A DNA stretch of 64,000 nt from NCBI GenBank assembly GCA_046160105.1, contig JBJXGT010000038.1, positions 6,837 to 70,836 of the forward strand, in the 5' to 3' direction. This DNA is from Gemmatimonadales bacterium (GTDB lineage Bacteria > Gemmatimonadota > Gemmatimonadetes > Gemmatimonadales > GWC2-71-9). The position numbers and the translations under genes were made by a program. Below the pieces are notes generated by a model. That model worked only from the letters and a program-made list of their open reading frames with translations. It searched no databases and had not been told where the DNA came from. The first letter of the stretch is position 1; each line of letters begins with the position of its first letter. Of the stretch, positions 34,607 through 45,675 are shown one piece after another.

Positions 34607-35245
34607 GTGAGCAAGCCGCTGCCGATCGCGATCGCCCACCTCGACGAGAGTTGCCTGGGCAACGGCCGGGAGGGCGACAATCCCGGCGGCGCCGCCGGGA
34701 TCATCGAGATCCGGCTGGCCACGGGCATCGAGCGCCGTGAGTTCGCGATCCACTCCCCCAAGACGACCAACAACCAGATGGCGCTCGCCGGCGCGATCGC
34801 CCTCCTTCAGCTGTTGGCCGGCAAGGGCCGCCGGCTCCGGGTCCTGATCATCTCCGACTCCGAATATCTGGTCCGCGGGGTGCGAGAATGGCTCCCCGGT
34901 TGGGTGAGCCGGGGCTGGAAGCGCAAGAGCGGTCCGATCGAGAACCTCGACCTGTGGCGCGCGCTGCATGCCTCCCTGACGGTGCACGAGACCACCTTCT
35001 GCTGGGTCCGAGGCCACGCCGGCCATCTCAAGAACGAATTCGCCAACGATCTCGCGGTCCGCGCCGCGAAGGAGCAGCGGACCACGGCCGGGATCGTGGC
35101 GTCGACCTTCGACGAGTGGCTCGCCGCTCAACGGGCCAAGGGGAAGTACTCGTCGGACGATCCGGACGCGGCTTTCGCCAAGTTGGAGCGCCGAGTCGCG
35201 GCAGGCGAACGACTGCCGCTGGCGCTCGAGGAGGGAGGAGCATGA
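34607..35245 (+). CDS. rnhA: ribonuclease HI homolog with C-terminal extension
   Basis: GTG 34607. LDESCLGNG, TTNNQMALAGAI, ISDSEYL, GHAGHLKNEFANDLA align to E. coli RNase HI. Ala sits at the position of catalytic Glu48. About 60 extra C-terminal residues. Confidence 0.75.
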   Translation: MSKPLPIAIAHLDESCLGNGREGDNPGGAAGIIEIRLATGIERREFAIHSPKTTNNQMALAGAIALLQLLAGKGRRLRVLIISDSEYLVRGVREWLPGWVSRGWKRKSGPIENLDLWRALHASLTVHETTFCWVRGHAGHLKNEFANDLAVRAAKEQRTTAGIVASTFDEWLAAQRAKGKYSSDDPDAAFAKLERRVAAGERLPLALEEGGA

Positions 35246-36021
35246 CCGATCTGGAGCGTTTGGTGGCCCGGCTGATCGAGGTGTTGCGGAACCGCGACGC
35301 CTCCAGTCTCCATCGTCCGCTGACGGTTGCCGACCTGCGCGCCACGGTGTTGCCCTATCGACTCCACCGCTCGGCGATCGGCCTGTCGAGCGCGGAAGAC
35401 TATGACTTGCTGGTGCTCCGGCTCATGGCTGAAGAAGACGGTTGGGTTCGGACCTTCCCGCCCGAGGCCGCCGCCAAGGCGCGGACCGAGGTCGCGTCGT
35501 CCAACCCCGATCTCGAGCTGGTCGAAGCGCTGGGCGACGCCACCGTCCAGATCGGGGCCGCGACCGTGGCTCGGTTCGACGAAGCCCCGGCCGAATCGCC
35601 GCGGGCCAGCAGCTGGGCGCCGCCGCCGCCGATCGCCGCAGCCGAGGCTGCCCTAGTTCCCGAGGTGCCGGCGGTGCCGGACGTGGCCGCCCCCCCGGCC
35701 ACCGCCGCGTTCCCGGTTGTCGCGCCGTCCCCGGTTGACGCCCCGCCGCCGCCTCCGCCGCCACCCGCGGTCGAGATCCCGATGTTCGAGTCGGTGGTCG
35801 TCGAATCGGCGGCCCCGTCCTCCGAGCCCGAGACCCCGACCTGCAAGGCCTGCCACCAGGCCCTGCCTACCCATCGACCGGTGGGGTTCTGTCCCTTCTG
35901 CGGCCGGCAGGTCGGGGTGCTGCGCTGCGCCCGCTGCTCGGAGGAGATCGAGCCGGGCTGGCGCCACTGTATCAATTGCGGTCTGGCGGCCGGTTCCGGC
36001 CCGGGGCCAGCCGTTCCTTGA
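35242..36021 (+). CDS. double zinc-ribbon protein with Pro/Ala-rich linker
   Basis: ATGA overlap with rnhA. C-terminal CKAC...CPFC...CARC...CINC. Contains a run of 8 consecutive Pro. Confidence 0.65.
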   Translation: MTDLERLVARLIEVLRNRDASSLHRPLTVADLRATVLPYRLHRSAIGLSSAEDYDLLVLRLMAEEDGWVRTFPPEAAAKARTEVASSNPDLELVEALGDATVQIGAATVARFDEAPAESPRASSWAPPPPIAAAEAALVPEVPAVPDVAAPPATAAFPVVAPSPVDAPPPPPPPPAVEIPMFESVVVESAAPSSEPETPTCKACHQALPTHRPVGFCPFCGRQVGVLRCARCSEEIEPGWRHCINCGLAAGSGPGPAVP

Positions 36022-40611: not shown

Positions 40612-41721
40612 TCAGGGTCGTAGTCGAAGCGGTGCCGCGGCCGTCACCCTTGCAGTTTGCCAGTCTTCCCCGAGCAGTCGGGCGATGGTCGCCGCGAACT
40701 GACTTTGGGTTCCGCTCTGCCGTCGAAGCGCCTCGGTTGGCGTGATCGACGGTCCCATCACCGCCATCCAAATCCGGTCCGCGGGCGCCATATCTTCGCC
40801 GTGATCGGTCCAGTCGCGGCTGGTCGGCCCACGGCCGTGGTCGGTCGAGATGATCAGGTGAGTCCGCCCGCGATAGCCCGGGAGCGACTGGGCTCTGGTC
40901 CACAGTCGCTCGATGAATCGATCGGCGCGATGGGTCGCGTCCAGGTAGAGATCGTAGCGGCGCTGGTGGGCCCATTCGTCGGTTTCCCCCAGGAGAACCA
41001 CCAGGACCCGGGGCTGTCGCACGGCGAGCGCCTCGAGGGCCGCGGCCATGGTCGGCGCGTCGAGCCGCGCGCTCGGCCACAGCACCGGCAGCCACTCCGC
41101 CATCTCGTTGAGCGCCCGCTCCACCGGACGGCGCGCGGTAGGGAAGGGCGGGCCGTCGCCGTTGACCGGGAGTCGACTCCGCTCGGTATTGATGATGAAA
41201 GGGAACACGTCCCACGAGCCGTAGACCTCGACCTGCCCTCGGTAGCGCGGCCGGGTGGCGAGCCACTCGAGCACCGTCACGTTGGGGTTGGGGACCTTCG
41301 CGTTGCTGTCGATCCGATCGTCCGCTTCCCCGACGAACAGCTCGTTGTAGCCCGGGTACGAGAACCGCCGGCCGTTGGTGACCCGGAACACGCTCCCCTC
41401 GGTGGAGTCCCCGAGCAGCATCCCCGACTCGGCCACCCGCCCCACCAGAAACGGCATCAGGGCTCGCCGCCGCTCGGCTTCATCCGGGCGCCAGAACCGT
41501 CGGAGGGTCGCGGTGGTGTCGGCGACGCCGCCATCCGGACTGGTGATCACCGCGCGATCCGCGCCGCCGAAGATCTCCTGCCAGCGCATTCCATCGAGGG
41601 TCACCACGATCACGCGATCGCTGGATTGGGCGCTCGCGATGGTCGTCGCGCCCGCCAGCATCGCTCCGATGATGGACGCGAAGAGGGCGTGTGGGCTCCG
41701 ATTGTGGCGTTTTGCACTCAT
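40612..41721 (-). CDS. alkaline-phosphatase-superfamily (phosphodiesterase-like) secreted protein
   Basis: Signal peptide. Metal-site-like VVTLDGMRW and ISTDHGRG. Its stop codon abuts the folA stop. Confidence 0.6.
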   Translation of the reverse strand: MSAKRHNRSPHALFASIIGAMLAGATTIASAQSSDRVIVVTLDGMRWQEIFGGADRAVITSPDGGVADTTATLRRFWRPDEAERRRALMPFLVGRVAESGMLLGDSTEGSVFRVTNGRRFSYPGYNELFVGEADDRIDSNAKVPNPNVTVLEWLATRPRYRGQVEVYGSWDVFPFIINTERSRLPVNGDGPPFPTARRPVERALNEMAEWLPVLWPSARLDAPTMAAALEALAVRQPRVLVVLLGETDEWAHQRRYDLYLDATHRADRFIERLWTRAQSLPGYRGRTHLIISTDHGRGPTSRDWTDHGEDMAPADRIWMAVMGPSITPTEALRRQSGTQSQFAATIARLLGEDWQTARVTAAAPLRLRP

Positions 41722-41883
41722 CGATCACCTCGTTGATGGCGTTCTCGCGCGATTTTGGCCCGACTTTTGTCAGCAAATGTATTGTGCGATCATCACGAGC
41801 TTCTTAGTTTAGTAGTGCGTAGTCGTTCGGAACACCACGAAGAGTAGTTGCGGGGCCTGATTGACCCTTTGCAAGGAGATCTT

Positions 41884-42999
41884 TTGGCGGTCCGAATAGG
41901 GTTCGCGTTCAATCTCAAGCCTAGTCACCTGAGTTCCTCCTCGAGCTCCGACGCCTCGGCGCCGGCCGCTTCGATCGACCCCAAGAGTGCCGCGCGGGCG
42001 CTCCGCTCCGATCTCCCTCAGCCCGATCTCTACGCCGAGTGGGACGAGCCGGAGACCATCGACGCCGTGGAGAAGGCGCTCTCCGGGCTCGGGAAGGTGA
42101 TCCGGCTCGACGCCGACGCCGAGTTTCCCCGACGGGTCTTGGCGGCTCGGCCCGACTTCGTCTTCAACATCGCCGAGGGGCTCTACGGGGTGAACCGGGA
42201 GGCACACGTCCCGGCGATCTGTGAGTTCCTCGGGATCCCCTACCACGCGTCCGATCCGCTCACCTTGAGCCTGTCCCTCCACAAGGGCCGGACCAAGGAG
42301 ATCCTCGCGTATCACGGAGTGCCGACGGCGCCGTTCATCGTGGCCAACTCCCGCGCCGACGCCCGGAACGTGAACCTGCCGTTCCCGCTCTTCGCGAAGC
42401 CGGCCCTCGAGGGGTCGAGCAAAGGGATCACCACCCGGAGCCTCTGCGCCAACCGGGCCAAGCTGGTGTCGGTGGTGGGTGACCTGCTCGACGTCTATCA
42501 GGAGCCGGTCCTGATCGAGACCTACCTGCCGGGGCAGGAGTTCACGGTCGCGATCATGGGTAACGGCCGCGAGGCCCGCTGCCTCCCGATCGTCGGGATG
42601 AAGTTCGACGAGTTGCCGCTCAACGCCCCGCCGATCTACGGCTACGAGGCGAAGTGGCTCTGGGATACCCCCGAACGGCCGCTCGAGCTGTTCGAGTGCC
42701 CGGCCCGGATCGACAAGGAGCTCGCCCGCGAGATCCGCAGCGTGGCGCTGGCATCCTATCGGGTCCTGGGCTGCCGCGATTGGTCGCGGGTCGACGTCCG
42801 TTGCGACGCCTCGGGCCGTCCCATGGTGGTCGAGGTCAATCCGCTGCCGGGGATCCTTCCCAACCCGAAGGACAACTCCTGCTTCCCCAAGGCGGCTCGG
42901 GCCGCCGGGATGAACTACGACACGTTAATCCAGACCGTCGCGGATATCGCCTGGCGGCGGATCAGCGGCAAATCCCTCCTCGCCAAGGCGGCCGCTTGA
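41884..42999 (+). CDS. D-alanine--D-alanine ligase-family ATP-grasp protein (paralog 1)
   Basis: TTG 41884 lies 5 nt after AAGGAG. NIAEGLYG, FAKPALEGSSKGI, ETYLPGQEF and VEVNPLPG are Ddl-like blocks. Ser-rich insert near the N-terminus. Confidence 0.8.
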   Translation: MAVRIGFAFNLKPSHLSSSSSSDASAPAASIDPKSAARALRSDLPQPDLYAEWDEPETIDAVEKALSGLGKVIRLDADAEFPRRVLAARPDFVFNIAEGLYGVNREAHVPAICEFLGIPYHASDPLTLSLSLHKGRTKEILAYHGVPTAPFIVANSRADARNVNLPFPLFAKPALEGSSKGITTRSLCANRAKLVSVVGDLLDVYQEPVLIETYLPGQEFTVAIMGNGREARCLPIVGMKFDELPLNAPPIYGYEAKWLWDTPERPLELFECPARIDKELAREIRSVALASYRVLGCRDWSRVDVRCDASGRPMVVEVNPLPGILPNPKDNSCFPKAARAAGMNYDTLIQTVADIAWRRISGKSLLAKAAA

Positions 43000-44003
43000 A
43001 GGTTGGCCTCGTCTATGACGCGGGCAGCGGTGACTGGGACCCGAAGGACGTAAAGGCGGTTCTCCAGAACGCCAAGAGCGTCGAGAAGTCGCTGCGCCGG
43101 GGTGGGCATCAGACCGTGCTCATCCCGGTTCGGCTTGGCGACGTCCAGTGGCTCGCCAAGGTCCAGCGCTGTGAGGTGATCTTCAACCTCTGCGAGGGGG
43201 TCAACGGGATCGCCCGCTACGAGGACTACGCGGTCGCGGCGCTCGACCTGACCCGGGTCCCGTTCACCGGCTGCGGCTCGTGGACCGTGACCATCGCCCA
43301 CCGGAAGCACATCGCCAACACTCTGCTGGCAGCCCACGGGGTGCCGGTGCCGCCGTTCGCGTTGGTCGACCGCGGCAGCTTGCCCACCGGCCTCAAGTTC
43401 CCGGTCATCGTCAAGCCGTCTGGGGAAGACGCCAGCGTCGGGATCGACGCGGGCGCGGTCTGCACCACCAAGAAGGCCCTGAAAGAGCGGCTCGCCAAAG
43501 TCGCCGGGATGTGGGAAGACACTCTGGTGCAGGAGTACGTGCCGGGGCGCGAGATCAACGTCGGGTTCGTCGGCGCGGAGATACTGCCGATGTCCGAGAT
43601 CGACTTCCAGAATATGCCCGACGGGAGCTGGCCGATCGTCACCTACTCCGCCAAGTGGGACACCGGCAGCCCCGAAGACCTCGGCACCATCCCGAAGGTG
43701 CCGGCACCACTGGCGCCCGAGCTCGCCAAGCGGGTTGCCGCCGTGGCCCAGGCCGCCTGGCGATTGATCGGCCAGGAGAAGGGCTATGGGCGGGTCGACA
43801 TCCGGATCGCGCCGGACGGCCAACCCTTCGTGCTCGAGGTCAATCCGAACCCGGACATCTCCGATGACGCCGGGCTGAGCCGGATGGCGGCCGCCCGCGG
43901 GTGGAACTACGACACCTTGATCCTCAAGGTGCTCGAGGAGGCGGTGGCTCGGGGCGATCGCCGGCGGGTGGCCGAAGCCCAGTACCTCAAGCAGCCGGTG
44001 TGA
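42996..44003 (+). CDS. D-alanine--D-alanine ligase-family ATP-grasp protein (paralog 2)
   Basis: TTG 42996 overlaps the upstream stop (TTGA). NLCEGVNG, VKPSGEDASVGI, QEYVPGREI and LEVNPNPD parallel paralog 1. Confidence 0.8.
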   Translation: MKVGLVYDAGSGDWDPKDVKAVLQNAKSVEKSLRRGGHQTVLIPVRLGDVQWLAKVQRCEVIFNLCEGVNGIARYEDYAVAALDLTRVPFTGCGSWTVTIAHRKHIANTLLAAHGVPVPPFALVDRGSLPTGLKFPVIVKPSGEDASVGIDAGAVCTTKKALKERLAKVAGMWEDTLVQEYVPGREINVGFVGAEILPMSEIDFQNMPDGSWPIVTYSAKWDTGSPEDLGTIPKVPAPLAPELAKRVAAVAQAAWRLIGQEKGYGRVDIRIAPDGQPFVLEVNPNPDISDDAGLSRMAAARGWNYDTLILKVLEEAVARGDRRRVAEAQYLKQPV

Positions 44004-44500
44004 GCGCCACGGCGGCCCCACCGACCGTTCGCCTCCTCGAACCGCGGGACCGCCTTCGAGTCGAGGCGATGACCCGGTCGGTGGGGCTGTTCTGGGACTG
44101 GGAACTGCCGATCGCGCTGGAGGTGTTCGACGACGCCGTCGGCACCAACGCCAGTCGGACGGTGGATCCTGACTACGAGACGGCCGGGGTCGACCTCGAT
44201 GGGCAGTTGGCGGGGTGGGCCGTGTGGGGCCCACGCCCCAGCGAGCCGGCGACCTTCGATCTCTACTGGATCGTGGTCGATGCCGCGGCACAGGGCCGGG
44301 GCATCGGTGGGCGGCTGCTGGCGGAGATGGAACGGCGGATCGCCGGGCGAGCCAGCCGAGTGATCGTCGAGACGTCGGGCCGGGCCGACTACCAGCCCAC
44401 CCGCCGGTTCTACGAGGCGCGCGGCTATCGGCGGATCGGCACGGTGCCAGACCACTACGCGCCCGGCGACGACCAGGTGGTCTACGAGATGCGGTACTGA
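44000..44500 (+). CDS. GNAT family N-acetyltransferase (166 aa)
   Basis: GTG 44000 overlaps the upstream stop (GTGA). Acetyl-CoA motif QGRGIGGRLL and C-terminal FYEARGY. Confidence 0.8.
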   Translation: MSATAAPPTVRLLEPRDRLRVEAMTRSVGLFWDWELPIALEVFDDAVGTNASRTVDPDYETAGVDLDGQLAGWAVWGPRPSEPATFDLYWIVVDAAAQGRGIGGRLLAEMERRIAGRASRVIVETSGRADYQPTRRFYEARGYRRIGTVPDHYAPGDDQVVYEMRY

Positions 44501-44517
44501 AGGCTTGGGGGAAACCA

Positions 44518-45675
44518 ATGTCCACGTGGCAGGAGCTGTTGAAGGAGCGGTCGATCGCCAGCCTGGAGAACCTGGCCATTCGGTTCGGGGACGAGCACGT
44601 CCCCCAGATCGAACGGCTCCGCCAGGCAGTCGACAACTTCGAGTTCCGGATTTCGCCGGCGATGGTCGATCTGATCAAGGAACCGGGCGACCCGATCTGG
44701 CGGCAATACGTCCCGACCCTGGCCGAGCTGGACGTCCAGGACGGCGTCGTCGATTCACTCAACGAGGACGGCGACAGCCCGGTCCCCAACATCACCCATC
44801 GGTATCCGGATCGGGCCCTGTTCCTGGTTTCGCCGGTCTGCGCCAGCTATTGCCGGTTCTGCACTCGGCGGCGGAAGGTGGGCGATCCCGAGAAGATCCC
44901 CCTGTCGCAGTTCGAGTCGGCCTTCCAGTACCTCGAGCAGCACACCGAGATCCGCGACGTGATCATGTCGGGCGGCGACCCGCTGATGTTGTCAGACCGG
45001 CGGCTCGACGCCGTCCTGACTCGCCTCCGGTCGATCCCCCACATCGAGATCGTCCGGATCGGCAGCCGGATCCCTTGTCACTTGCCCGAGCGGATCACCC
45101 CGGAGCTGTGCGACACGCTCCGGAAGTTCCACCCGCTCTTCATCAACACCCATTTCAACCACCCCGACGAGCTTACCCCCGCGGCGGTCCGGGCCCTCGG
45201 TATGTTGGCCGACGCCGGGATCCCGTTGGGCTGTCAGACGGTGCTCCTCCGCGGCATCAACGACACGCCCGAGGTAATGGTGCGGCTGATGCAGAGGCTG
45301 CTGATGGCCCGGGTCCGGCCCTACTACATCTATATGGCCGACCAGGTGGCCGGCGGCGAGCACTTCCGGACCTCGGTGGAGACCGGGCTCAAGATCATGA
45401 AGGCCTTGCGAGGCTGGACCAGCGGGTTGGCCAGTCCGCACTTCGTGATCGACGCGCCGGGCGGGGGCGGGAAGATTCCGTTGCTGCCGAACTACGTCGA
45501 GTCCTGGGGTGAGGACGAAGTGGTGCTCCGGAACTTTCGGGGGGACCGGTACTCTTACAAGCAGCCAGAAGACGGGGCGGTGCCGGCGCGGCGGACGGAC
45601 CCGGAGTATCTGTTCAATCCGGGGTTCGACCTGCCCGTCAAGCGGCCGGTGGGACGGAAGCGGAAGACGGCGTAG
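44518..45675 (+). CDS. KamA-family radical SAM aminomutase (lysine 2,3-aminomutase-like)
   Basis: ATG 44518. CASYCRFCTRR (CxxxCxxC), SGGDPLML, and PYYIYMADQVAGGEHFR, which is typical of KamA/AblA/EpmB relatives. Confidence 0.88.
   Translation: MSTWQELLKERSIASLENLAIRFGDEHVPQIERLRQAVDNFEFRISPAMVDLIKEPGDPIWRQYVPTLAELDVQDGVVDSLNEDGDSPVPNITHRYPDRALFLVSPVCASYCRFCTRRRKVGDPEKIPLSQFESAFQYLEQHTEIRDVIMSGGDPLMLSDRRLDAVLTRLRSIPHIEIVRIGSRIPCHLPERITPELCDTLRKFHPLFINTHFNHPDELTPAAVRALGMLADAGIPLGCQTVLLRGINDTPEVMVRLMQRLLMARVRPYYIYMADQVAGGEHFRTSVETGLKIMKALRGWTSGLASPHFVIDAPGGGGKIPLLPNYVESWGEDEVVLRNFRGDRYSYKQPEDGAVPARRTDPEYLFNPGFDLPVKRPVGRKRKTA

Follow-up and report, generated by a model that had tools for sequence, protein, structure and literature searches.

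A widespread four-gene cassette of two Ddl-type ligases, an N-acetyltransferase and a KamA-family aminomutase, and its possible role in beta-lysine-derived amide synthesis

In this study, we analysed a 64,000-nucleotide stretch of DNA (the window) from a Gemmatimonadales bacterium and identified a cassette of four coupled genes on the same strand (41884-45675, + strand), which encode two Ddl-type ATP-grasp ligases (AG1 and AG2), a small GNAT N-acetyltransferase and a KamA-family aminomutase. The best reading is that this cassette represents a widespread uncharacterised pathway, in which lysine would be converted to beta-lysine, two amide bonds would be formed and an amino group would be acetylated; its product and role are inferred. 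We give roughly even chances to the view that the four genes act together as a single operon, with a small amide compound derived from beta-lysine as the product of its biosynthesis. The features of the locus are as follows:

41873..41878, + strand: AAGGAG, Shine-Dalgarno-like, read in the sequence, 5 nt 5' of the AG1 TTG start
41884..42999, + strand: AG1, Ddl-type ATP-grasp ligase, 371 aa, TTG to TGA (Pfam Dala_Dala_lig_C 2e-33)
42996..44003, + strand: AG2, second ATP-grasp ligase of the Ddl type, 335 aa, TTG start (Pfam Dala_Dala_lig_C 2e-24)
44000..44500, + strand: small GNAT N-acetyltransferase, 166 aa, GTG start (Pfam Acetyltransf_1 2e-10, Acetyltransf_7 9e-10)
44518..45675, + strand: KamA-family radical-SAM, PLP-dependent 2,3-aminomutase, 385 aa, ATG start (Pfam LAM_C 4e-22, Radical_SAM 4e-12)

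The start codon of AG2 overlaps the AG1 stop as TTGA (42996-42999), that of the GNAT overlaps the AG2 stop as GTGA (44000-44003), and a 17-nt gap separates the end of the GNAT gene (44500) from the ATG of the KamA homolog (44518). A first-pass annotation had reported both overlaps, the gap and the AAGGAG, all of which were found in place when the sequence was read; the coupling that it claimed is borne out by these junctions and by the recurrence of the same 4-nt overlaps in relatives, such as L002, L047 and L054. The AG1 start at 41884 agrees with the N-termini of homologs (MAVRIGFAYNLK...), whereas a longer open reading frame from 41848 does not and was set aside. The 160-nt intergenic region upstream of AG1 (41722-41883) has a lower G+C content and contained no Rfam match and no sigma70-consensus site. 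The G+C content of the cassette is that of the surrounding DNA.

The adjacency of these genes is not due to chance. We compared 70 species-representative loci, one per species-level genome in which the DNA downstream of the AG1 homolog was long enough. Of these, 61 had AG1-AG2-GNAT-KamA in the same order, and they span at least six phyla, with members in Gemmatimonadota, Bacteroidota/Ignavibacteria, Chlorobiaceae, Acidobacteriota, Desulfuromonadales and others. The four genes are strongly co-conserved, a point on which the first-pass proposal had been made to depend. A permuted order, KamA-AG1-AG2-GNAT, was observed in Desulfovibrionales, Planctomycetota and Myxococcota, often behind a sigma54 activator, and KamA-AG1-AG2-(HDAC)-GNAT was seen in Desulfovibrionales and Planctomycetota. 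The two ligases are fused in the arrangement KamA-AG1::AG2-GNAT (L089 and the Myxococcota locus L091), and Rosetta-stone KamA::AG1 fusions were found in both orders, AG1 being the ligase type that occurs fused to KamA in other lineages. Three Gemmatimonadota loci (L002, L009 and L013) had AG1-AG2-GNAT without an adjoining KamA and three loci (L031, L032 and L058) had the cassette without GNAT, which implies that the unit is not obligatory in cis.

The last gene carries the motifs CASYCRFC, SGGDPL and PYYIYMADQ, on which its earlier assignment as a KamA-type aminomutase had been based, and this assignment is supported by a score of 275 bits with TIGR00238, the model of the KamA subfamily (cut-off 199), and by an active site of the lysine type. 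The protein fails the more specific models AblA TIGR03820 (the best-scoring one; 438.6 bits, cut-off 525.4), EpmB TIGR03821 (228 bits, cut-off 369), Glu-2,3 (383, cut-off 650) and Arg-2,3 (306, cut-off 600); by its EpmB score it is not in the EpmB clade, a placement that the first-pass annotation had considered. Scores across the lineages tested were similar (AblA, 430-472 bits versus 525; EpmB, 228-265 versus 369). In the alignment to C. subterminale LAM 2A5H (E 5e-110), residues C125/C129/C132, R134, D293, D330 and K337 are identical, and they are invariant in 68 cassette orthologs wherever the aligned residue is present, except for a single K337R and for a divergent paralog that occurs in L011. 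The lysine-type residues are also retained in Desulfovibrio-type and fused aminomutases. In one fusion protein, P0312, Gln takes the place of Asp293, and a different amino acid is suggested as its substrate. The cassette enzymes lack the C-terminal Cys cluster and carry another residue instead of the Zn ligand C268. Judged by aligned residues and model scores, the active site is of the lysine type and the enzyme is not an equivalog of EpmB or of AblA.

AG1 and AG2 are paralogs, as had been proposed from shared motifs (32% identity over 266 aa, E 4e-42), and both were confidently modelled by AlphaFold with the Ddl fold (pLDDT 92 and 90, respectively), the best PDB fold matches of AG1 being Ddl enzymes (TM about 0.8). 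Both fall far below the NCBIfam Ddl cut-offs; AG1 reached 169.7 bits with the best Ddl subfamily model (cut-off 243) and is not a bona fide D-Ala-D-Ala ligase. The residue-level reading of both ligases depends on alignment to E. coli DdlB, with an approximate sequence for its first 20 residues, and on the functional roles assigned to DdlB residues in the literature. In AG1, K97, K144, E180, E187, K215, R255, D257, E270 and N272 (DdlB numbering) are invariant in 79 orthologs, as are EGS(S/G) at 148-151, G276 and S281, and Y210 is retained in 78 of the 79; its acceptor site looks like a canonical Ddl-like site with the equivalent of the carboxylate-binding Ser281. Residues 20-44 of AG1 form a disordered Ser/Ala-rich insert in the AlphaFold model. 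The catalytic residues of AG2 are conserved in 78 orthologs, with E or Q at position 180, together with a near-invariant signature of E-D-A-S at 148-151, V at 210, D at 276 and A-G at 281-282, which makes its substrate site different from that of AG1 and more acidic. Both ligases have therefore retained the full ATP-grasp catalytic set, yet their site signatures are distinct.

The GNAT carries an acetyl-CoA motif (QGRGIGG), and its best NCBIfam match was rimI (36 bits, cut-off 86). No AblB model was among its NCBIfam matches, in agreement with the earlier view that it does not fit AblB. The nearest solved structure is 2R7H, a 'putative D-alanine N-acetyltransferase' (E 4e-23, full length), whose gene was located in the same kind of cassette on an Oleidesulfovibrio alaskensis-type contig.

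No other neighbour was conserved across phyla in the cassette loci, which are flanked by housekeeping genes that differ between lineages (for one group thyA-folA, for another recG-gpsA-plsY). A protein of the HDAC/acetylpolyamine-amidohydrolase family is a recurrent accessory in several lineages, and GNAT~HDAC fusions were found in L082, L086, L087 and L070. In L076 and L052, genes for SpeY, a ureohydrolase homolog and PvlArgDC, a trio that constitutes the agmatine/SpeY homospermidine pathway (PMC13625781), form a chain with AG1-AG2 and a methyltransferase gene through overlaps of 4 nt. The ligase pair lies here beside polyamine genes without an aminomutase, which implies that beta-lysine may not be the sole or direct substrate. 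The deacetylase and the SpeY operon as accessories hint at polyamine-like amine chemistry. Such chemistry was not among the options considered in the first-pass annotation.

It is possible to propose a series of reactions for the cassette. The KamA homolog would act on L-lysine like lysine 2,3-aminomutase, yielding (3S)-beta-lysine through the same radical-SAM/PLP mechanism, a step well supported by its residues. AG1 would then use ATP to form an acyl-phosphate and join beta-lysine to a partner amino acid, and AG2 would form a second amide bond. Since the AG2 site lacks the carboxylate-binding Ser and has gained two near-invariant Asp residues, AG2 probably accepts an amine that carries a positive charge, candidates being a polyamine and the beta-lysine unit with its free amino end. 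The GNAT might acetylate a remaining free amino group; because several lineages add the HDAC/acetylpolyamine-amidohydrolase-family deacetylase, the acetyl group could, depending on the lineage, cap the finished product or protect it until removed. No exporter, membrane protein or carrier was conserved with the cassette, and the product is thus most likely a soluble cytoplasmic metabolite. Candidates include an N-acetylated beta-lysine di- or tripeptide and a beta-lysine/polyamine conjugate, which, if so, may act as a solute or a polyamine-like cation. An acetylated beta-lysine di- or tripeptide, perhaps serving as a compatible solute, or a beta-aminoacyl modification, as the first-pass annotation had suggested, would be plausible. 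None of the present observations favours the osmolyte role in particular. Neither NCBIfam models nor full-text searches of the openly accessible literature revealed a description of the cassette or a characterised cluster matching it; as no matching pathway was found in these searches, the product is probably a new beta-lysine-containing compound.

Other explanations were also considered. The ligases might attach beta-lysine to a protein, at a lysine or at the C-terminus, or else to a precursor of peptidoglycan or the envelope, with the GNAT acetylating the adduct; EF-P would be one candidate target, the ligases being a non-orthologous replacement of EpmA. The KamA relatives EpmB do supply beta-lysine for EF-P, KamA::AG1 fusions that stand alone, lacking both the GNAT and a further ligase, represent a minimal 'make and attach' pair, and the cassette lies amid housekeeping genes in most phyla. 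We regard macromolecule modification as unlikely, however, given that the KamA homologs fall outside the EpmB equivalog and that none of 91 loci showed an efp or epmA closer than about 10 kb, either in Pfam gene lists or by tblastn with approximate E. coli EF-P and EpmA sequences (the sole tblastn match was a 497-aa ORF of LysRS size). This agrees with the absence of an EpmA-like gene stated in the first-pass annotation. In addition, protein substrates are not known for Ddl-fold enzymes, attachment would not call for a pair of different ligases together with an acetyltransferase and, in some cases, a deacetylase, and the dedicated sigma54 activator of the Desulfovibrionales operon suggests conditional rather than constitutive expression.

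Two ligase sites, often fused in a protein of roughly 700 aa, also resemble two-site polymerases, and iterative ATP-grasp action has precedents in RimK and CphA (cyanophycin synthetase). The cassette might accordingly make a polyamide containing beta-lysine, a cationic polymer for storage or protection that the GNAT would cap or regulate, and in L090 an AG1xAG1 double protein adjoins a Peptidase_S58 (DmpA/BapA-family) gene. However, no primer-binding, granule-associated or depolymerase gene was conserved with the cassette, the nearest folds are the strictly dipeptide-forming Ddl enzymes, and an acetyltransferase/deacetylase pair better suits small-molecule amine handling, which makes such a polymer quite unlikely. 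It is very unlikely, in our opinion, that the cassette is an ordinary AblA/AblB osmolyte system (KamA plus GNAT) with unrelated cell-wall Ddl paralogs travelling along. AblA is the top specific model for the aminomutase, the GNAT adjoins it, and acetylation of beta-lysine is an established way to an osmolyte in methanogens and was proposed for Pelobacter (PMC3543383). Nevertheless, no lineage tested has an aminomutase that reaches the AblA cut-off, no AblB match was obtained for the GNAT, and both ligases are below the Ddl cut-offs. The GNAT is also about 100 aa shorter than AblB. Moreover, the ligases remain with KamA and GNAT through three gene orders, are fused to KamA and to each other, and lie between KamA and GNAT in the permuted cassettes.

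Model scores and gene content agree with the first-pass annotation that the cassette fits neither AblA/AblB, EpmA/EpmB nor Ngg. AblA (lysine 2,3-aminomutase) and AblB (beta-lysine N-epsilon-acetyltransferase) make N-epsilon-acetyl-beta-lysine, a methanogen osmolyte, and likewise combine a KamA-family enzyme and a GNAT in one operon, but the cassette aminomutase lacks the Zn/Cys C-terminal element as well as an AblA-level score, its GNAT is small and not AblB-like, and its two Ddl-type ligases are integral (co-conserved and fused). In EpmB/EpmA, a KamA-family enzyme also feeds beta-lysine to an ATP-dependent amide-forming partner, which is a LysRS paralog and not an ATP-grasp enzyme. Ngg/AsnO (NAGGN) and mammalian NAT8L plus RIMKLA (N-acetyl-aspartyl-glutamate) similarly use a GNAT and an ATP-grasp enzyme for N-acetylated di- or tripeptides, but they have no aminomutase and belong to another ATP-grasp subfamily, and the cassette has no amidotransferase. 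Compared with the Ddl/Van family, AG1 and AG2 share the fold (TM about 0.8) and the catalytic residues, but both have Trp instead of Tyr216, AG2 is also altered at Gly149, Ser150, Gly276, Ser281 and Leu282, and the genes adjoin the aminomutase and GNAT rather than mur or fts genes. The pyrrolysine system differs in that PylB, which yields 3-methylornithine, neither belongs to the KamA family nor uses PLP, and in having one ligase instead of two and PylD in place of a GNAT; no Pyl model was among the NCBIfam matches listed (best 25 of 34 for AG1 and best 25 of 40 for AG2). Its logic would nevertheless be the same by analogy, as in PylB/PylC lysine is first rearranged by a radical-SAM enzyme, and the resulting amino acid is then linked through an amide bond by an ATP-grasp enzyme of the Ddl fold.

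The cassette consists of four genes on the forward strand, for which the first-pass annotation had given starts, overlaps and a gap at 41884-45675 that are all present in the sequence exactly as described:

41884 (TTG)-42999 (TGA), forward strand: first ATP-grasp ligase (AG1), 371 aa, with AAGGAG upstream at 41873-41878
from 42996 (TTG), forward strand: second ATP-grasp ligase (AG2), 335 aa, starting in a TTGA overlap with the AG1 stop
44000 (GTG)-44500, forward strand: acetyltransferase (GNAT), 166 aa, in a GTGA overlap with AG2
44518 (ATG)-45675, forward strand: KamA-type aminomutase (KamA), 385 aa, 17 nt after the GNAT gene

Homolog N-termini favoured the AG1 start at 41884 over a longer ORF from 41848. 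Pfam searches detected Dala_Dala_lig_C in both AG1 (2e-33) and AG2 (2e-24), Acetyltransf_1 in the third protein and Radical_SAM plus LAM_C in the fourth, in agreement with the families assigned at first pass, and the supposed paralogy of the two ligases was borne out (32% identity, E 4e-42). The closest homologs of KamA and AG1 were all from Gemmatimonadales metagenome bins, which places the window in this order, and an exact-sequence look-up returned no record for the window KamA. In its N-terminal domain AG1 carries a low-complexity insert rich in Ser and Ala (residues 20-44, window 41941-42015), which is predicted to be disordered (pLDDT < 50) and is missing in AG1 orthologs outside Gemmatimonadales.

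The four genes are co-conserved across genomes, as their reading as one cassette had supposed. A profile scan with a 12-sequence alignment of AG1 relatives, in which each GTDB species was represented by a single genome, yielded at least 594 confirmed matches, and the best 80 loci were fetched. Of the 70 loci with 3.7 kb or more of DNA counted from the AG1 start, 61 had AG1-AG2-GNAT-KamA in the same order and on the same strand in tblastn searches with the four window proteins. Taxon labels of the fetched loci included Gemmatimonadota, Bacteroidota/Ignavibacteria/Melioribacter/Kryptonia-type bacteria, Chlorobiaceae, Acidobacteriota, Desulfuromonadales and Rokubacteria. In addition, a 'Bacillota bacterium' bin (L005) had an AG1 that was 72% identical to the window AG1 together with Gemmatimonadales flanking synteny, and a 'Syntrophomonadaceae' bin (L067) had a cassette with Ignavibacteria-type flanking synteny; both are probably mis-binned contigs and not occurrences in Firmicutes.

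All-against-all clustering of flanking ORFs gave no further gene common to cassettes across phyla, and only lineage-specific housekeeping synteny was observed. An FAD-oxidase-thyA-folA block is kept upstream of the cassette in Gemmatimonadota. In the Ignavibacteria group the cassette lies between ispD-plsY-gpsA-recG on its upstream side and NAD kinase on its downstream side. It follows that the cassette is a self-contained unit placed within housekeeping DNA. The alternative that it is a horizontal-transfer island was rejected because its G+C equals that of the flanks and the thyA-folA synteny is kept across Gemmatimonadales. Two neighbours in the window were observed apart from these blocks. 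A phosphodiesterase/alkaline-phosphatase-superfamily gene (40612-41721, reverse strand), whose protein has a hydrophobic N-terminal segment resembling a signal peptide, lies between folA and the cassette; it looks like a local insertion, since thyA-folA nearly abuts AG1 in the relative L001. The ORF at 34888-36021 encodes a Pro/Ala-rich protein with a double CxxC...CxxC zinc-ribbon-like C-terminal motif (CKACHQ...CPFCG...CARCS...CINCG).

A search with the sequence of the solved structure 2R7H retrieved further cassettes in Desulfovibrionales, Planctomycetota and other contigs, in which the order is (sigma54 activator)-KamA-AG1-type-AG2-type-GNAT. At the Desulfovibrionales-type loci (regions L082:4293-4569, L083:4310-4465, L087:2363-2903 and L089:3892-5349) the gene preceding kamA encodes a sigma54 enhancer-binding protein. 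A sigma54-type -24/-12 element (TGGCATATCTGTTGCT) lies upstream of kamA in L082. The DNA upstream of kamA also contains two CGGAAC-N5-6-GTTCCG palindromes in each of L082 and L083, and in L087 a single imperfect copy of the palindrome together with a weaker sigma54-type match. Judged from these sequence elements, the activator and palindromes look like a regulon of their own that is so far undescribed. The cassette genes go unmentioned in the paper on the D. vulgaris sigma54 regulome. Rfam searches revealed no riboswitch or leader, either upstream of the window cassette (41400-42100, permissive E-values) or in the window and four Desulfovibrio/Planctomycetota loci at gathering thresholds. The intergenic regions upstream and downstream of the cassette folded no better than shuffles, and a sigma70-type promoter scan gave no site. 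The only terminator-like match was on the reverse strand inside AG2, with fewer sites than in shuffles.

With regard to the aminomutase, the window protein passed the KamA subfamily model TIGR00238 (275.2 bits, cut-off 199.2) and failed the AblA equivalog TIGR03820 (438.6 versus 525.4) as well as the Glu-2,3 (383 versus 650) and Arg-2,3 (306 versus 600) models. A place inside the EpmB clade, which had been considered at first pass, is contradicted by its score against TIGR03821 (228.1 versus 369.3 bits). Cassette KamA proteins from five other lineages had the same pattern of passes and failures; scores in other phyla were 247-265 bits for EpmB and, with one KamA::AG1 fusion included, 430-472 bits for AblA, again below the cut-off. 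Alignment with the lysine 2,3-aminomutase of C. subterminale (2A5H; E 5e-110) showed that the CxxxCxxC cysteines, Arg134, Asp293, Asp330 and the PLP-binding Lys337 are identical. These active-site residues are invariant wherever aligned in 68 cassette orthologs, except for one K337R and the divergent L011 paralog, and are likewise kept in Desulfovibrio-type and fused forms. Cys268, a Zn ligand, is substituted, and no cysteine occurs in the C-terminal tail of the window protein. The epsilon-ammonium group of lysine is bound by Asp293 and Asp330, positions that are taken by Lys and Asn in glutamate 2,3-aminomutase. Because the lysine-specific residues are kept, conversion of lysine to beta-lysine is the best-supported step of the predicted pathway. 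In one Gemmatimonadales genome, a divergent 462-aa KamA-family paralog (L011:12706-14094; 29% identical) replaces the cassette aminomutase. It has DVPFVGKRW instead of DAPGGGGK, retains Asp293 and Asp330, and scored under every NCBIfam cut-off, including that of the generic KamA model.

Predicted structures of both ligases had the Ddl fold (pLDDT 92 for AG1 and 90 for AG2; TM ~0.8 to DdlB), and the top Foldseek matches of both were Ddl structures only, which did not discriminate between substrates. We aligned about 79 orthologs of each ligase to E. coli DdlB, with residues 21-304 taken from the retrieved sequence and with residues 1-20, like the roles of individual residues, supplied from background knowledge. 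K97, K144, E187, K215, R255, D257, E270 and N272 are kept in both families; at position 180, AG1 has E and AG2 has either E or Q. Since the ATP-grasp catalytic residues are kept, both ligases should be catalytically active. AG1 keeps the Ddl-like EGS(S/G), Tyr210, Gly276 and Ser281, the last being the D-Ala2 carboxylate ligand of Ddl. The AG2 signature, which has hardly any exceptions, is E-D-A-S at 148-151 with Val210, Asp276, Ala281 and Gly282. From these differences we infer that the acceptor of AG1 would be an amino acid with a free carboxylate and that of AG2 a cationic amine without a nearby carboxylate.

Gene fusions provided additional information on how the activities are related. A profile-free AG1 search among 1.84 billion representative proteins gave 1,039 clusters of AG1 relatives (50% identity) at E < 1e-30, many of them 600-790 aa long. 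Pfam revealed double AG::AG proteins as well as KamA::AG proteins with either domain first. By signature, the ligase domain joined to KamA is always AG1-type, and the double ligases are mostly AG1-type followed by AG2-type. In L089 and the Myxococcota locus L091, a fused AG1::AG2 gene separates kamA from the GNAT gene, and stand-alone KamA::AG1 fusions occur in L084 and L085. Names of cluster members for the fusion proteins were just 'D-alanine-D-alanine ligase' or 'hypothetical'. The occurrence of three gene orders and two kinds of fusion is strong evidence that the four activities serve one pathway, and also indicates that AG1 acts directly on the aminomutase product. One AG1-type::aminomutase fusion (P0312, L084:6001-8088) has Gln at the position of Asp293, scored slightly higher as a glutamate than as a lysine 2,3-aminomutase, and adjoins a class I/II aminotransferase gene; it may represent a sister module for another beta-amino acid. 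Another protein (P0245, L090:7001-10432) is an AG1-type::AG1-type double ligase and is followed by a Peptidase_S58 (DmpA/BapA-family) gene, a family that includes beta-peptide-cleaving aminopeptidases.

The GNAT matched Acetyltransf_1 (41.4 bits versus 20.7) and carries the acetyl-CoA motif (Q/RxxGxG/A) as QGRGIGG. Its best solved-structure match, at full length, was 2R7H, 'putative D-alanine N-acetyltransferase' (E 4e-23), and over the part of 2R7H used as query (residues 23-174) the GNAT of L083, a G20-like contig, was 99% identical to it. The cassette of Oleidesulfovibrio alaskensis G20 is probably Dde_3041-3044, because 2R7H is presumably the Dde_3044 product and the SpoIIE gene three genes downstream of the cassette in L083 matches the name Dde_3047. 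This name belongs to a Ser/Thr phosphatase gene (PMC8836040). A fifth protein of ~580 aa, in which a weak GNAT-like N-terminus is fused to a strong Hist_deacetyl domain (PF00850, 1e-72), recurs in Desulfovibrionales, Planctomycetota and Desulfuromonas and matched no NCBIfam model:

L087:6250-8004: cassette member
L086:6265-8004: cassette member
L082:8629-10386: cassette member
L070:7963-9690, reverse strand: divergent gene upstream of AG1 in a Desulfuromonas locus

The HDAC family includes acetylpolyamine amidohydrolases. Some loci have the ligase pair but neither GNAT nor KamA adjoining it, and two of these (L076:2837-8302 and L052:6059-11358) encode, in this order, a DHS/SpeY homolog, an agmatinase (ureohydrolase) homolog, a pyruvoyl arginine decarboxylase, the ligases AG1 and AG2, and a class I methyltransferase, which ties the pair of ligases to polyamine biosynthesis. 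In L076, 4-nt overlaps link every gene of this series up to AG2. SpeY, the agmatinase homolog and pyruvoyl arginine decarboxylase constitute the agmatine/SpeY pathway for homospermidine (PMC13625781). Considered with the GNAT and the HDAC-family gene, this trio offers a lead that the accessory genes may serve the handling of polyamine-like primary amines, which would be acetyl- or methyl-capped and sometimes uncapped.

Several known systems share components with the cassette, and the poor fit to AblA/AblB, EpmA/EpmB and Ngg noticed at first pass holds by score and gene-content tests. The AblA/AblB pair was rejected as the aminomutase falls below the AblA cut-off and no AblB model was among the six NCBIfam matches of the GNAT at E <= 0.01, the best of which was rimI, under its own cut-off. 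Similarly, an EpmA/EpmB system was rejected on the EpmB score; neither efp nor epmA was found in the 64-kb window or the 91 related loci by Pfam gene lists and tblastn with E. coli EF-P and EpmA queries, the single tblastn match being a 497-aa ORF of LysRS size. The Ngg/AsnO (NAGGN) system was rejected since the GNAT is a separate gene and no amidotransferase is present in the cassette or its conserved flanks. It was also considered that AG1 and AG2 might be real Ddl enzymes, whose fold they share. This was rejected because both fail the Ddl model NF002378 (169.7 and 128.9 bits, cut-off 243) and fall still further below the cut-offs of other Ddl and Van models, and because the D-Ala site set Ser150/Tyr216/Gly276/Ser281/Leu282 is changed to S,W,G,S,C in AG1 and A,W,D,A,G in AG2. 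The four cassette proteins have no specific model in NCBIfam and gave no match to PADLOC anti-phage defence models, and no description of the cassette was found in the full-text literature outside subscription-only journals. The gene combination, its breadth and the AG1/AG2 subfamilies appear undescribed, although the enzyme families themselves are familiar.

Overall, the first-pass reading is partly supported: its structural claims hold and none of the three outcomes named as refuting it was observed, but the product and role that it proposed are putative. In the best explanation, for which the chances seem evenly balanced, the operon makes beta-lysine, forms two amide bonds by two different ligases and adds an N-acetyl group, which would yield a soluble beta-lysine peptide or amine conjugate. 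A wider and more doubtful proposal is a phylum-spanning pathway to a cationic metabolite based on beta-lysine. This could be an aminoacyl-beta-lysine or a beta-lysine/polyamine amide, with its charge tuned by acetylation and deacetylation and a polyamine-like or stress-protective role; AG1 and AG2 would then represent a new class of ligases with the Ddl fold that act on beta-amino acids and polyamines. Beta-lysine has few known bacterial fates, such as EF-P modification, lysine fermentation and a handful of antibiotics. If correct, the four-gene unit would add a new branch of beta-lysine metabolism coupled to two distinct ATP-grasp ligations. Conservation of the cassette reaches from Gemmatimonadota as far as Desulfovibrionales and Planctomycetota, and AG1 relatives form more than 1,000 clusters at 50% identity. 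The pathway would also assign a function to many proteins that currently carry the annotation 'D-alanine--D-alanine ligase', an annotation that bears on predictions of cell-wall synthesis and vancomycin resistance. The cassette is present in the genetically tractable O. alaskensis G20, and a GNAT structure (PDB 2R7H) is solved. The overall logic, in which a rearranged amino acid is joined by ATP-grasp amide formation and capped by a GNAT, is familiar from systems such as PylB/PylC, NAGGN or AblAB.
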